Shown one piece after another: positions 3,109-36,237 of a stretch of DNA of 46,343 nucleotides; positions within the stretch are counted from its first letter, which is position 1, and every line of letters begins with the position of its first letter. Position numbers and translations under genes: made by a program. The notes beneath the pieces were generated by a model. The model was not told where the DNA came from. It did not search any database and saw only the letters and a program-made list of their open reading frames with translations. This DNA comes from a virus, in the UHGV virus genome UHGV-0181016; one strand, 5' to 3'.

Positions 3109-3137
3109 TTGACGTAGATTGATCGGTGGTGCATAGT
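3109..3137 (+). promoter_or_regulatory. sigma70-type promoter, TTGACG-N17-CATAGT, a member of the conserved phage promoter family
   Basis: TTGACGTAGATTG is followed by GGTGGTG in the spacer. An inverted ATCTACAT lies downstream. It sits in the non-coding gap between diverging operons. Confidence 0.5.
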
Positions 3138-3281
3138 ATCTACATCAAGCGATGAGTGAGGAATAAGAGATGGGAATGTACATAGAATTGGTTTTGAAGT
3201 GTCAAATCAAGGGCGTGCATTGGTTGGACTTGGTATGAAGAGGAATTGCAGCCTACATTAATTATTTTTTAAGGTTAAATC

Positions 3282-3425
3282 ATGGTAATGGTCAAATTCA
3301 AAGAAAACGGACGCTGCGGAGTGTTCAATCTTGAGCAAATCAAAATCCGTCCGTGCTGCAAGGTGGTTGCGCCATTTGGTCTGGTGCAGATGCGCGAAGT
3401 TGAGATTGTTGAATACATTAAGTGA
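3282..3425 (+). CDS. hypothetical protein, 47 aa
   Basis: AAGG lies 8 nt upstream of the ATG. This is the first ORF after the promoter. Confidence 0.3.
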   Translation: MVMVKFKENGRCGVFNLEQIKIRPCCKVVAPFGLVQMREVEIVEYIK

Positions 3426-3589
3426 GGTTGGTGATGACTCAGCGCGAAGTTTACAGACTATGCTCGCGGCACTCCAGCAACTACTGGAAATCTACGACGA
3501 CCACTCCGGAAAAGTCTGGACAACATCAAGCAAGCGTCGCGCTCTGGATAATGCGCGTGCGGCGGTTAATAAGGCATTGGGAGAATAAA

Positions 3590-4075
3590 ATGAAACAATG
3601 TGATCTTTTTCGTGTTCTTAGTTATAACCCTGAATCTGGTGAATTCACTTGGATTAAATCAAGAAGACATGGGTTTAGCGGTAGAAAAGCTGGGACGATA
3701 AATGGGAAAGGTTACATACAGATCTGTATTGATGGAAAGCTTTATCTTGCGCACAGGCTTGCTCTTCTATACGTGACAGGAGAGATGCCAAAGGAGGTTG
3801 ATCATATTAACAGGGTGAGAGATGACAATAGATTATGCAACTTAAGGCCATGCACTTCATCTGAAAATAAGCACAACAAGGATATCACATCCAGAAACAA
3901 AACAGGGATAAAGGGCGTCAGCTGGTATCCTGCCGGAAATTCATGGCGAGTAAGGATATGCGTAAATAAAACACAGATTCATCTGGGCTACTACGAAGAC
4001 ATTGAGCTGGCAGAGCTTGTGTCGCAAGAGGCGAGAATTAAATACGCAGGAGATTTTAATTATGAAGCTTATTGA
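3590..4075 (+). CDS. HNH homing endonuclease with a C-terminal AP2-like DNA-binding domain. An alternative in-frame start at 3434 is possible.
   Basis: Motifs are GYIQICIDGKLYLAHRLALLY, EVDHINRVRDDNRLCNLRPCTSSEN for the HNH fold and GIKGVSWYPAGNSWRVRI for AP2. GGGAGA lies 6 nt upstream of the ATG at 3590. An overlapping frame-1 ORF ends at 3588. Confidence 0.7.
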   Translation: MKQCDLFRVLSYNPESGEFTWIKSRRHGFSGRKAGTINGKGYIQICIDGKLYLAHRLALLYVTGEMPKEVDHINRVRDDNRLCNLRPCTSSENKHNKDITSRNKTGIKGVSWYPAGNSWRVRICVNKTQIHLGYYEDIELAELVSQEARIKYAGDFNYEAY

Positions 4076-4661
4076 TTTACTGGTTAAAGAATTGCCTAAG
4101 CGTGGTGGGTGGCCTGAGGGTGCTGAAATCGCCGTACAGGATGCCGACTCTCAAATTTGCTTTAGCTCTCACAGTGATGTTTACGCGAATAAAGGCAAAA
4201 CTGACTGGTATGGTGGTGATTGGTGTGATGGAGACTGGAGTAACCCATTCATTGACACTATTGCTGATGACAGGCATGAATGTGTCGTAACTCGCGACCA
4301 ATACGAATCCGCACTCGCTGCATCGCAAAAGCCAGCATGGGACGGAGAAGGTCTTCCGCCAGTTGGGTGTGAATGTGAGATATCATTTTCCGGCAAATCA
4401 CTAGGGCAGTGTGAAATCCTTTTTGTTGGTGATTCGCTTATTGTCTGGAAGCAAAAGTCATCACAACAAGAAGGTAGCGGCTACCACAGGCATATGAACA
4501 TTAGACCACTACACACAGAAGCAGAAAGGAAGCGAGATGCAGCAATAGAGGCAATGCAGAGAGAAGCTGACGATGGCAATAACTGGGTTTATAGCGAATA
4601 CGAAATCATTTACGACGCCATCGCAGAAGGAAAGATTCCCGGTGTGAAACTGGATGATTAA
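4062..4661 (+). CDS. hypothetical protein, 200 aa, Cys/Trp-rich
   Basis: ATG at 4062 overlaps the end of the HNH gene. The gene ends just before the terminator at 4738. Confidence 0.45.
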   Translation: MKLIDLLVKELPKRGGWPEGAEIAVQDADSQICFSSHSDVYANKGKTDWYGGDWCDGDWSNPFIDTIADDRHECVVTRDQYESALAASQKPAWDGEGLPPVGCECEISFSGKSLGQCEILFVGDSLIVWKQKSSQQEGSGYHRHMNIRPLHTEAERKRDAAIEAMQREADDGNNWVYSEYEIIYDAIAEGKIPGVKLDD

Positions 4662-4737
4662 AACAATATTCAGCGTCGTAGAGATATTGTGCTATGCGAT
4701 AATAATATTCGTTCTGTGCATGCTGATAAGGTAAAGC

Positions 4738-4762
4738 AAAGCCCTCACTTAGAGGGCTTTTT
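4738..4762. terminator. bidirectional terminator
   Basis: Hairpin AAAGCCCTC-actta-GAGGGCTTT is followed by TTTG. Converging genes end at 4661 (+) and 4745 (-). Confidence 0.6.
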
Positions 4763-5731
4763 GTTGGCCGATTGCCACGCCTCTCGCTGCTTATCAAGTC
4801 TTTCCTGCGACGATTCAAGAATGACTGGCTTGCCATTCATTAATAACGCAGGGGTTTGTGCGCAGTGACAATTATATCTATTGCCATTCTCGCTATAGAA
4901 CGCGTCGATTTCTTCTGGCGTGTAAAACCGTCCATGTCTCGCCGCGTGAGTCTGGCGTGTTGTGCGCATTAATGCCGATTGCCACAGCATTACCGTCTCA
5001 ACACCTAGCTCTTCGCGCGCCTCAATGACTTCTCGCCTGTTAGCCTGCCTGAGCGTTCCGGTGATTTCAGTCTGCGCCAACTGTTTCGCATAACTGTGAG
5101 ACACATCAACACGCTTAACGATGTTAGATTCAACATCGCGAGGATTTGCGCCACGGGCAATTCCTTCCATAATGACAGACGCCAGTTGCTGGCGGGAGTA
5201 ATCACTCAATCCGCGCCAGTCCGAGTAACCTTGCGTATAAGCCAGTTGCAGGCGATTCAGGTAAGGCTCACTGTAGAGTATCGCGGCAATCGGCCTTTGC
5301 TCGGCATAAACCTGAGACAGGCTTGACAGCTCTGAATTGGCCTTCTGCGTGCCAGCCTGATACGCATCACCGATAAACACGTTAGCCCACATCCTGCCGT
5401 GACCGAAATCGTCTCCTTCAAGCAGAATCTCGTCAATCAGCGCCTGCAATTCATCCATGAATGTGGCGGCTCGCGCGCTGCTGAAATCGTAGAAATACAG
5501 GCCGCTTGATTCTGCATTGGTCTGACTACCTGGAATGGTGCGAAACAACTCAAGCGCACGAGTCCTGAGTTGTTTGTATTTGCGCGCTATCACCTTGTCC
5601 ATTTTAGACAGGCGAGCCGCAGCGCCTAACGGGTCGGTCAGGCTCTGCGATATGCGCGGCTGAGGAAGCCTGGCGTTAAACCGGAGTATCTTCATTTTCG
5701 TCTTCCGGTGGGGTGTCTTCCATGTATCCAT
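4745..5731 (-). CDS. head morphogenesis protein (SPP1 gp7 / Mu F-like minor head protein)
   Basis: It lies immediately downstream of the portal gene. The Mu-F-like C-terminal region shows conserved Q/R-rich helices. The size is 328 aa. Confidence 0.65.
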
Positions 5732-35304: not shown

Positions 35305-35569
35305 TTTTCTTCGACTCCCGTACCTTCCACCACATTTCAAACAGGTTCTTTATTACCAGAGACAGAGCGCCAAGAATTGACGCTACTGCCGCCCACTCTG
35401 TCAGGCTATGTGGAATCATAGCCTCAAAATAAGATTGCGCGACAGGCGTTTGCTCTGCAACTTTCAGGCCGATGCCAGTGCCAATAGAAGCATATCCAGC
35501 CTTATCAATCACCTGCCCTGCCGTTCCGCTTATGATCTGCTCTGCGGCCTGCCTTAATGCTCCGTTCAT
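35285..35569 (-). CDS. membrane protein, 94 aa, with a C-terminal TM
   Basis: It carries the hydrophobic helix AAVASILGALSLVI. Confidence 0.4.
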   Translation of the reverse strand: MNGALRQAAEQIISGTAGQVIDKAGYASIGTGIGLKVAEQTPVAQSYFEAMIPHSLTEWAAVASILGALSLVIKNLFEMWWKVRESKKNGSTNT

Positions 35570-35601
35570 TGTGCGTCTCGCTGATGATATGTTTCCAGCA
35601 C

Positions 35602-36042
35602 TTATAGATTTGAATCAGCGAAAAAACGATGGCGACCACGCCAAGAATAATGTCCAATTTCGCCGCCCCATTTAAAAGTGATGGAAAGGATGAACAGATG
35701 GATGCCGATAATAATAAATGCGTACTGCGCATGAAGCGGCGTTTCTACAGGCGTGATAAATTCCCATACGAATGACTCTATCGCCACCAGCCATTCGTAA
35801 AGGCTCATCGTCAGCACGCAGAGCGCCATCTTTGTACTTTTACGCAGCGCAATAGCTGGAAACAACCAGACCATAGACTGCGCAAGGTAATACAGATATT
35901 CGGCGGGAAATGAATCAACAAGCACCCATCCAAGATACACAGACATCACCATTGCCGGAACGAACACCAGAAACGCAACCATGCCAGTGCAGGCGAAACC
36001 CAGCACATACATGATCATGATGGCAACATCTGCGCCGAACAT
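35602..36042 (-). CDS. polytopic membrane protein, about 4 TM
   Basis: It has four hydrophobic helices. Confidence 0.4.
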   Translation of the reverse strand: MFGADVAIMIMYVLGFACTGMVAFLVFVPAMVMSVYLGWVLVDSFPAEYLYYLAQSMVWLFPAIALRKSTKMALCVLTMSLYEWLVAIESFVWEFITPVETPLHAQYAFIIIGIHLFILSITFKWGGEIGHYSWRGRHRFFADSNL

Positions 36043-36044
36043 TA

Positions 36045-36164
36045 TTTCTTACCGCGTGATGGTGAGCGAGTGGAACCGTTTGGCTTCACTGCGCCAGTTT
36101 TGCCGCCAGTTTTGATATTTCCAGTAGCGCGTGAACGAGAAGGCGAATTGGTGGAACCCATGTT
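36045..36164 (-). CDS. small, highly basic, disordered protein of 39 aa
   Basis: The translation is MGSTNSPSRSRATGNIKTGGKTGAVKPNGSTRSPSRGKK. AGGAG lies 8 nt upstream. Confidence 0.4.
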
Positions 36165-36191
36165 TAAATCTCCTGTTGTTTGATTAGCATG

Positions 36192-36200
36192 ATTTTAGCA
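36192..36200 (-). promoter_or_regulatory. extended -10 promoter on the minus strand, TGCTAAAAT, for the connector and tail operon
   Basis: TGnTAAAAT lies about 30 nt upstream of the ATG at 36164. Confidence 0.4.
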
Positions 36201-36208
36201 TATTCCTG

Positions 36209-36237
36209 TTGACGTAGATTGGTGGCGCGTTTATAGT
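36209..36237 (+). promoter_or_regulatory. family promoter, TTGACG-N17-TATAGT, driving the ParB / Dam / clamp island
   Basis: The sequence reads cctgTTGACGTAGATTGgtggcgcgttTATAGT. Confidence 0.55.

Follow-up and report, generated by a model that had tools for sequence, protein, structure and literature searches.

The 46,343-nucleotide virus sequence UHGV-0181016, analyzed over its whole length and called the window here, is the complete, circularly permuted genome of a virulent siphophage. This report deals with a family of predicted promoters distributed over this genome and with an asymmetric 10-bp box, TGAYGTAGAW, that they share and that is a candidate operator. All structural and lysis genes are on the minus strand, and units of small early or accessory genes and replication genes are carried on both strands; the labels "early" and "late" are assigned from gene content only. 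Gene coordinates were obtained by our own selection of open reading frames (ORFs) on codon usage and were cross-checked by tblastn against annotated relatives. Intergenic DNA accounts for 6.5% of the genome. Intrinsic-terminator-like hairpins lie at 1617, 7104, 10483, 32484, 33779, 39298 and 43835.

Relatives that are ~88-93% identical, in a mosaic fashion, include the Escherichia phages C1 (Deseoctovirus) and Sa179lw (Buchananvirus), the Shigella phage Sf11, and the Salmonella phages KFS-SE2, Seszw_1 and Akira. The clade consists of the genera Skatevirus, Buchananvirus, Deseoctovirus, Cedarrivervirus and Akiravirus together with Klebsiella relatives. No description of the box or of a transcription program for the clade was found in the literature covered, subscription journals lying outside that coverage.

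A 10-bp box common to the early promoters

Seven or eight sigma70-type promoters are predicted in front of the early and accessory units. Seven sites match the -35 consensus at 5-6 of its 6 positions and have a spacer of 16-18 bp and a -10 hexamer whose second base is A and sixth base T. At each early-class site, the unit's first gene or RNA lies 40-130 nt downstream, in the correct orientation. The pattern TTGACR-N17-TAKAKT is present at four sites, as compared to 0.00 expected from 100 shuffles. Generic sigma70-like matches are not enriched genome-wide (43 vs 36.5, 24 vs 31.7, and 9 vs 9.9 expected); thus, the promoter signal is specific to the box family. A preliminary description of this genome had proposed a family of near-identical promoters placed at every strand switch. 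The family is real, but the element shared by its members was misdefined and its distribution overstated.

Repeated-word counts and alignment of the sites define the common element as TGAYGTAGAW. The whole genome has 10 exact copies as compared to 0.42 expected, and all 10 are intergenic (p~1e-12). About five additional copies with one mismatch are found in the same control regions as the exact ones, seven regions in all, while the number of one-mismatch copies within coding DNA is close to the chance expectation. The shorter word GTAGAT occurs 20 times, with nine of the copies in intergenic DNA (p=1.7e-6). Unbiased enrichment of intergenic 7- and 8-mers yielded just three families: terminator stems, box words, and origin-like iterons.

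When preceded by a T, the box gives a -35 hexamer (TTGACG); when followed by a T, it gives a -10 hexamer (TAGATT). Counted from the first T of the -35, forward boxes begin at +1 (promoters P2, P4 and P9), at +18 (P4, P7 and P8), and at +32/33 (P9 and P1a), and inverted boxes at +6/7 (P3 and P1a) and +29 (P2 and P3). In every family promoter the -10 or the predicted start site is covered by a box. This element accounts for features that had been listed separately. One box spans both the -35, formed by its 5' half (TGACG), and the TAGATTG noted after it, which is the 3' half; the GATG that precedes the TAGATT -10 belongs to a second copy of the box. The repeats TGTAGAT and ATCTACA do surround the family promoters, as had been reported. 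GGTGGTG, taken earlier for a shared spacer element, is exact in two of six promoters, and the matching positions vary among P9 orthologues; GTG before the -35 is found in three of six promoters only. Conservation beyond the needs of sigma70 is therefore a property of the discrete 10-bp box and not of GGTGGTG or GTG.

Conservation of the box

Orthologous promoters were taken from six relatives in RefSeq and from loci in IMG/VR that were retrieved with the major tail protein and the portal as anchors; this gave 17-32 distinct orthologues per promoter and ~40 relatives overall. The frequency of non-consensus bases is 0.00 in the -35 and ~0.00-0.05 in the -10. Box positions outside the hexamers are as constant (0.00-0.07), as compared to 0.24-0.34 in the mid-spacer (P9, P4, and P3', an extra promoter of the relatives) and 0.30-0.41 at the three bases 3' of the -10 where these are not covered by a box. 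Spacer positions 13-17 provide an internal control: they vary (0.16) only in P9, the only promoter without a box there. For example, variability in P4 is 0.00-0.01 in the boxes and 0.34 in the mid-spacer, and P2 is invariant from -35 to +11 among 27 distinct orthologues. Given the freely diverging mid-spacer, these frequencies indicate that the box positions are under purifying selection.

The box is retained across the clade. Each of eight clade genomes (8/8) has 9-14 exact boxes, in 6-8 regions. The Klebsiella phage KpV2811, whose proteins are 24-92% (mostly 40-80%) identical and whose flanking intergenic DNA is different, keeps nine boxes, some of them in a different replication module. In IMG/VR the two-box promoter is found in this clade only, and none of the 185,579 bacterial genomes in the GTDB species set has it. 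The promoters also behave as cassettes, as seen when IMG/VR loci (L007-L077) were compared at the P9, P8 and P2 positions. The P9 leader is near-invariant, yet ~10 different first genes follow it across relatives, and the cargo of P8 alternates between tRNAs and other sequence. At the P2 position the box over the -10 or start site changes in register among relatives and can be turned to the opposite orientation. In one contig this position is occupied by another promoter of the family, of the two-box type seen in relatives, and in a second contig the P2 spacer is deleted (TTGACGTATAGTATCTACATCAA).

The early-class promoters

The first control region holds promoters in both directions. The predicted leftward early promoter P1a (203..232, minus strand; TTGACG 232-227, N18, AATACT 208-203) heads an operon that spans the end of the sequence (163..1 and 46343..43843), and its region is conserved among relatives. 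A rightward candidate, P1 (207..235, plus strand; TTGACT 207-212, N17, CAAGAT 230-235), heads genes 260-1612 and has a box within its spacer; the same TTGACT-N17-CAAGAT architecture is present in KpV2811. Directly upstream of P1 is a rightward extended -10, TGGTACAAT (183-191, plus strand), with a box over its start site. The boxes of this region are TGATGTGGAA (161-170, minus strand, one mismatch), TGACGTAGAT (190-199, minus strand) and TGATGTAGAA (216-225, plus strand). A weak minus-strand promoter had been placed at 195, but the sequence there, TTGACGTAGATTG, has no -10 at 16-18 bp and is a box downstream of P1a (232-203).

P2 (3109..3147, plus strand; TTGACG 3109-3114, N17, CATAGT 3132-3137) heads genes 3282-4661. 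One box (3110-3119, plus strand) overlaps its -35 and an inverted one (3138-3147, minus strand) lies over the predicted start site. The 17-bp spacer described earlier at this site was upheld, but its -10 is CATAGT and not TAGATT or TATAGT. P3 (8067..8121, minus strand) departs further from the consensus. It was thought to have a 17-bp spacer but consists of TTGACA (8105-8100), N16 and TAGTAT (8083-8078); a TATAAT there would need a 19-bp spacer. It heads the small genes 8046-7139 and has three boxes, 22-23 bp apart and inverted with respect to the promoter: an exact one at 8067-8076 and one-mismatch copies at 8090-8099 and 8112-8121. The relatives have a rightward two-box promoter divergent from P3, absent from this genome, and their P3 region together with this divergent partner holds five boxes in tandem.

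The consensus -35, 17-bp spacer and TAGATT or TATAGT -10 reported earlier are exact at the four remaining promoters. P4 (12431..12459, minus strand; TTGACG, N17, TAGATT) is made of two direct boxes, one providing the -35 (12449-12458) and the other the -10 (12432-12441). It heads the early-left operon 12400-10546, which ends at the terminator 10501-10483. P7 (31769..31797, plus strand; TTGACA, N17, TAGATT) has a box (31787-31796) over the -10 and heads 31837-32480, a superinfection-immunity region in relatives, followed by the terminator 32484-32503. P4, P7 and the extra rightward promoter of the relatives share a common initial transcribed sequence, TCATCGAAAC. P9 (36209..36250, plus strand; TTGACG, N17, TATAGT) has one box overlapping the -35 (36210-36219) and another over the start site (36241-36250); its unit, 36279-39294, includes a ParB-like gene, a DNA methylase gene and RusA.

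P8 (33279..33307, plus strand; TTGACA, N17, TAGATT), with a one-mismatch box (TGGTGTAGAT, 33297-33306) over its -10, is followed by a non-coding unit with no plus-strand gene. The unit contains tRNA-Met (33697-33773), detected by both ARAGORN and Rfam, and then a terminator (33779-33799); relatives have one or two tRNA genes at this position. The ~390 nt between P8 and tRNA-Met (33308-33696) gave no Rfam match and no convincing ORF, and relatives differ there, with other sequence or additional tRNAs. A transfer-messenger RNA called by ARAGORN at 33388-33773 was rejected, since an Rfam scan of the P8 transcript returned the tRNA only.

The distribution of the family is narrower than the earlier claim that it marks every strand switch and heads every moron and early unit. 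Family promoters are found at six of the nine divergent switches, and the one at 8105 lies within a same-strand block here, though at a switch in relatives. The replication block 13075-21479 and the genes 16780-17022, 27909-28076 and 42432-43829 use other promoters or none that can be recognized. The replication block has a non-family promoter at 13014 (TTGACT-N17-TATTCT, with GCTTCC in the spacer). The region 17023-17156 is a separate control region, that of the Cro/YdaS-like helix-turn-helix (HTH) gene 16780-17022; it has two TTGACG hexamers back-to-back, 21 bp apart (17080, minus strand; 17102, plus strand), and the module is common to Sa179lw and Sf11 only. The site at 17102, previously counted as a weak family member, shares only TGTTGACGTA (17102..17111) with the family, and the nearest -10-like hexamer is 22 bp away.

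The late-class promoters

The pattern TGnTAnRAT is not enriched in total (19 observed vs 15.8 expected), and 9 of the 19 sites are intergenic (p=1e-6). Together with two sites that touch gene ends, the set consists of ten leftward sites and a single rightward one (at 183). The ten leftward sites are correctly oriented, with the start codon of a late or lysis operon 21-37 nt downstream, and would serve the lysis, portal, terminase, tail-fiber, tail, major-tail, connector and head operons. At 17 bp, 0 of these 10 sites have a TTGACA-like hexamer, the longer TGTG form is present in 4 of the 10, and none has an exact box. The extended -10 boxes noted earlier at 36192, 9954 and 10458 are part of this set. 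The two-class code proposed in the preliminary description is thus supported at the sequence level, with box-bearing -35/-10 promoters predicted for early and accessory units and box-free extended -10 promoters for late and lysis units.

All ten late sites are on the minus strand. The lysis operon, which starts at 3065, is preceded at 27 nt by TGATAGAAT (3092..3100), and the portal gene at 37 nt by TGCTATAAT (7125..7133), which overlaps the terminator hairpin of the P3 unit (7127-7104). Upstream of 9931, TGATATGAT (9954..9962) would serve a block of HNH and large terminase genes. A second copy of TGATAGAAT (10458..10466), directly after the early terminator 10501-10483, is 26 nt upstream of gene 10432-9977, the counterpart of the small terminase annotated in Sa179lw and Akira. 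Tail-fiber gene 23929-21515 has TGATACAAT (23963..23971), with an 18-mer core kept in six of six close relatives. TGCTAAAAT is found upstream of the tail genes that run leftward from 27767 (27795..27803) and of the head-tail connector genes 36161-33802 (36192..36200). TGATATAAT is used three times: upstream of the tail operon that runs leftward from 31719 (31749..31757), in a TGTG-extended form upstream of the major tail protein gene 33227-32511 (33264..33272), and 30 nt upstream of the head operon 42394-39324 (42424..42432).

Four of the late sites (3092, 31749, 33264 and 36192) are back-to-back with an early -35 at 6-11 bp: the gap is 8 bp to P2, 11 bp to P7, 6 bp to P8, and 8 bp to P9. The divergent late promoters next to P7 and P8, read on the opposite strand, give the sequence GATTATATCA seen upstream of these two. 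Inverted near-boxes with a mismatch in the GTAGA core lie at two late start sites, 23955-23964 (ATATACATCA) and 31741-31750 (ATCAACATCA); these could be weak operators or chance matches.

Other features of the genome

The divergent intergenic region between P4 and the primase-polymerase module (12500-12910) is a putative replication origin. An AT-rich block (~12500-12620) is followed by a hairpin (12626-12645) and by ~9 iterons of GCTTCCC(G), which are found in both orientations; of the 8-mer, 6 copies are present vs 0.95 expected. The cumulative GC skew has its minimum at ~12000. In the replication/recombination block an identical 12-mer, TCGAGAGGACAC, occurs at 17144, 18449 and 19028, just 5' of the start codons at 17157, 18465 and 19041, and looks like a shared translation-initiation region. 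The 11-mer AAACATAATGC (GCATTATGTTT on the opposite strand) has four copies, at 10880, 11193, 20630 and 45316, at least two of which are at overlapping stop/start junctions of small genes. Two identical copies of a bidirectional terminator, AAAGCCCCTTTCGGGGCTTT, are located at 28081-28100 and 32484-32503, and this terminator is present in six of six close relatives.

Three genes are probable mobile endonuclease genes. A 465-amino acid (aa) plus-strand ORF (42432-43829), inserted between the early-left operon and the head operon, is common to Akira only and is annotated there as a DUF559 endonuclease. The product of 3590-4075 is an HNH-AP2 protein by Pfam, and the counterpart of 9419-9931 is annotated as an HNH endonuclease in relatives.

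Candidate box-binding proteins

The top candidate for a box-binding protein is a predicted ParB/Spo0J-like HTH protein of 269 aa encoded at 36767..37576 (plus strand) and presumably transcribed from the two-box promoter P9. It matches the Pfam families HTH_ParB (1.9e-11) and KorB (4.7e-6), both above the cut-offs, and its best PDB match is Spo0J (1vz0, 6.7e-13, residues 41-202). With an N-terminal ParB domain and an HTH, the predicted protein belongs to the ParB/KorB family. It is present in all seven relatives compared (7/7) at 97-99% identity, and in KpV2811 at 82% identity with a 100% identical HTH segment. It is the only annotated DNA-binding protein common to all relatives and is more conserved in KpV2811 than almost all structural proteins. 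Genome-reduced seszw mutants, down to 37 kb, all retain the gene among the tblastn matches listed; the paper that describes them (PMC9825161) is without promoter or transcript data. Between the Escherichia/Salmonella and the Klebsiella groups, as compared with KpV2811 (locus L116), the ParB-like (82%) and RusA-like (92%) proteins and the P9 leader are much better conserved than the structural proteins (24-80%), which suggests that the module 36767-39013 is under unusual constraint or was recently exchanged. Co-variation of protein and box is uninformative, since the 82% Klebsiella homologue has both an identical HTH and identical boxes. The next tier of homologues, at 47%, is found in Erwinia phage 59, a lambdoid temperate phage without boxes.

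A second candidate, 68 aa long and a predicted three-helix bundle, is encoded by the gene that opens the three-box P3 unit (7840..8046, minus strand). Its single-sequence AlphaFold model has a predicted local distance difference test score (pLDDT) of 74.5, with 81-91 in the core. The top Foldseek matches of the model are HTH domains (NarL, GerE, CENP-B, DeoR), none of them significant (E>=0.2). In KpV2811 many positions of its putative recognition helix are changed, whereas the box is the same. Two other proteins are not suited as universal binders because each is missing from some box-carrying relatives. Among the relatives, only the two with the same primase-polymerase module encode the Cro/YdaS-like HTH protein 16780-17022. 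The MarR-like protein 45157-45645 has no counterpart in Akira, a phage with 14 boxes.

A model for early shut-off and its alternatives

The box may be an operator for the coordinated shut-off of early transcription by a phage DNA-binding protein, for which the ParB-like protein is the best candidate; we give this reading about an even chance. The operator reading is favored because the box is placed on the -35, the -10 or the start site, in either orientation, is constrained beyond the contacts of sigma70, and is absent from the late class. In this model, a sequence-specific protein made early in infection, most plausibly the ParB/KorB-family protein from P9, would bind the boxes. As it accumulates, it would occlude the -10 or the start site of all the early promoters together, its own promoter included. 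The late, structural and lysis operons would be read from box-free extended -10 promoters, for which a -35 is not needed, and silencing of the early class could also relieve competition for the four late promoters that are back-to-back with it. A more complete version, in which a ParB/KorB protein of a virulent phage reads a non-palindromic box that doubles as -35 or -10, in any orientation, and early repression frees the divergent late promoters so as to account for the whole switch, is distinctly unlikely. If true, one protein and one box would produce the complete early-to-late switch.

Several observations weigh against the shut-off model. The spacing between boxes differs (17, 22-23 and 31 bp), and the box is not palindromic, unlike classical parS/OB sites. 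A search of the genome for a repeated conserved palindrome, as a separate parS site of the ParB-like protein, found none; because the box is asymmetric and there is no such repeated palindrome, KorB-like action of this protein on the boxes is less likely, but its place in the ParB/KorB family is unaffected. The cytidine triphosphate (CTP)-binding motif GxxRxxA is only partly kept, GQHRYLGA aligning with GERRYRAA of Spo0J, a match that retains the G and a single R but none of the other arginines. About a dozen small conserved early proteins of unassigned fold are alternative binders; Pfam and PHROG searches gave no functional annotation for 17 small conserved early proteins. Extended -10 promoters should fire on naked DNA from the start of infection, which leaves delayed late expression unexplained. 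The searchable literature has no start sites, expression timing or protein-DNA binding for the clade. The set of orthologues is phylogenetically shallow for most promoters, and one retrieval step demanded the word GTAGA, which biases the frequencies toward conservation. Retrieval anchored on flanking sequence, a partial control for this bias, gave the same box retention, and variant alleles with a changed -35 found in this way still keep TGATGTAGAT.

The promoters might instead be read by RNA polymerase only, with the extra positions tuning promoter strength, the open complex, sigma70-dependent pausing and escape, and no box-binding factor involved. Interaction with sigma70 is given by construction, as the box includes words resembling a -35 (TGAC) and a -10 (TAGAT/TAGAA). 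Forward boxes at +32/33 set a -10-like hexamer at ~+2 to +7 of the transcript, which is where such a hexamer causes sigma70-dependent pauses at lambda PR', and the initial transcribed sequence common to P4, P7 and the relatives' extra promoter points in the same direction. However, polymerase contacts are position- and strand-specific, whereas the same 10-mer is used here in both orientations and at five offsets, with inverted boxes at the start site (P2, P3) and just after the -35 (P3, P1a). Alleles of P2 bear the box in opposite orientation, and bases to which sigma70 is indifferent vary as little as the hexamers. Tuning of the polymerase alone is rather unlikely on this evidence. That the family consists of paralogous promoter cassettes, spread by common ancestry or recombination and similar without function, has some appeal in view of the identical P9 promoter and leader in front of ~10 different first genes, the alternative cargo of P8 (tRNAs or other sequence), and the relative-type two-box promoter at the P2 position of one contig; P4, P7 and the relatives' extra promoter are also alike over ~30 bp beyond the box. 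But within orthologues the mid-spacer has diverged almost freely and the box positions have not, which argues for purifying selection and not recent copying; most paralogues have nothing in common besides the box and the hexamers; and KpV2811 keeps the box amid different flanking intergenic DNA. Ancestry as the sole explanation is very improbable.

The boxes might also bind a host transcription factor and so couple early transcription to host physiology. Phages of Escherichia, Salmonella, Shigella and Klebsiella all have the same exact box despite diverged proteins, as would be expected of a site for a conserved enterobacterial factor, and asymmetric boxes for a host factor are known at the early promoters of a lytic phage (PMC2731898). 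The two-box arrangement is absent from the bacterial species genomes searched, a point of little force since host sites would be single boxes. To our knowledge, TGAYGTAGAW does not fit the motif of any enterobacterial regulator, the motifs compared including those of DnaA, MetJ, NarL, EvgA, DeoR, CRP and FNR. The phage's own invariant HTH protein fits at least as well as a host factor, and a host sensor is considered quite improbable.

Comparison with known systems

The shut-off model has parallels in several systems. The gp71 operators and "stoperators" of mycobacteriophage L5, reportedly described by Brown and coworkers in 1997, resemble the boxes in three ways: i) a short asymmetric site (13 bp in L5, 10 bp here) is repeated many times over the genome; ii) the site at the early promoter itself contains the -35 hexamer; and iii) one protein could silence many units together. 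However, L5 is temperate and gp71 is its immunity repressor, whereas this phage is virulent and has a candidate binder only. Most of the L5 sites are inside transcription units, in one orientation, and block elongation. The exact boxes here are all at promoters and in both orientations, unlike stoperators.

As with KorB of plasmid RK2, a ParB-family HTH protein is encoded in an operon open to autoregulation, and candidate sites are found at many promoters of the replicon, so that the protein might be a global repressor. The KorB site, however, is a 13-bp palindrome, whereas the box is asymmetric with no repeated palindrome, and the link between the phage ParB-like protein and the box is by inference only. 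P1 ParB, which reads asymmetric A and B boxes in mixed orientations, is a better precedent within the family than KorB.

Phage T4 with AsiA, and Thermus phage P23-45 with gp39 and gp76, express their late genes from -35-independent promoters. Here too the early class relies on a strong -35 and the late class consists of extended -10 promoters without one, and transcription would be switched by blocking either the use of the -35 or the early promoters. No early protein was recognized as a homologue of AsiA or gp39, and a DNA box on the early class points to a DNA-binding repressor and not to a sigma-binding protein. The PeSL cassettes (early promoter plus stem-loop) of T4-type phages, said to have been described by Arbiol and coworkers in 2010, are likewise near-identical early promoter units found next to variable accessory genes, at the boundaries of recombination. 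Their promoter consensus is different, and in the present family a conserved box is used in both orientations. A conserved leader stem-loop was not found in this family: folds are weak, structures differ among orthologues, and z-scores range from -2.05 to +0.89. PeSL-like or stabilizing leader RNA hairpins were ruled out by these weak and inconsistent folds.

In the lytic Bacillus phages phi29 and Nf, early transcription is repressed through short asymmetric Spo0A boxes that overlap the early promoters (PMC2731898), and the placement of the boxes is similar here. The binder of the Spo0A boxes is a host regulator, and the sequence and the host clade are different; in the present case the clade-specific distribution of the box favors a phage factor.

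Significance for the clade

An early/late code of this type is a conventional kind of phage regulation that appears to be undescribed for this clade. Phages of the clade are often isolated for biocontrol of Salmonella, E. coli and Klebsiella and have also been used in genome reduction. The early-promoter box and the late-promoter class provide a testable map of regulation for the clade, from which engineers who delete or insert genes can learn which short cassettes to keep or reuse. A compact set of strong and probably co-repressible promoters is on offer to synthetic biology. Furthermore, the conserved cassettes mark sites at which accessory genes are exchanged among the relatives.

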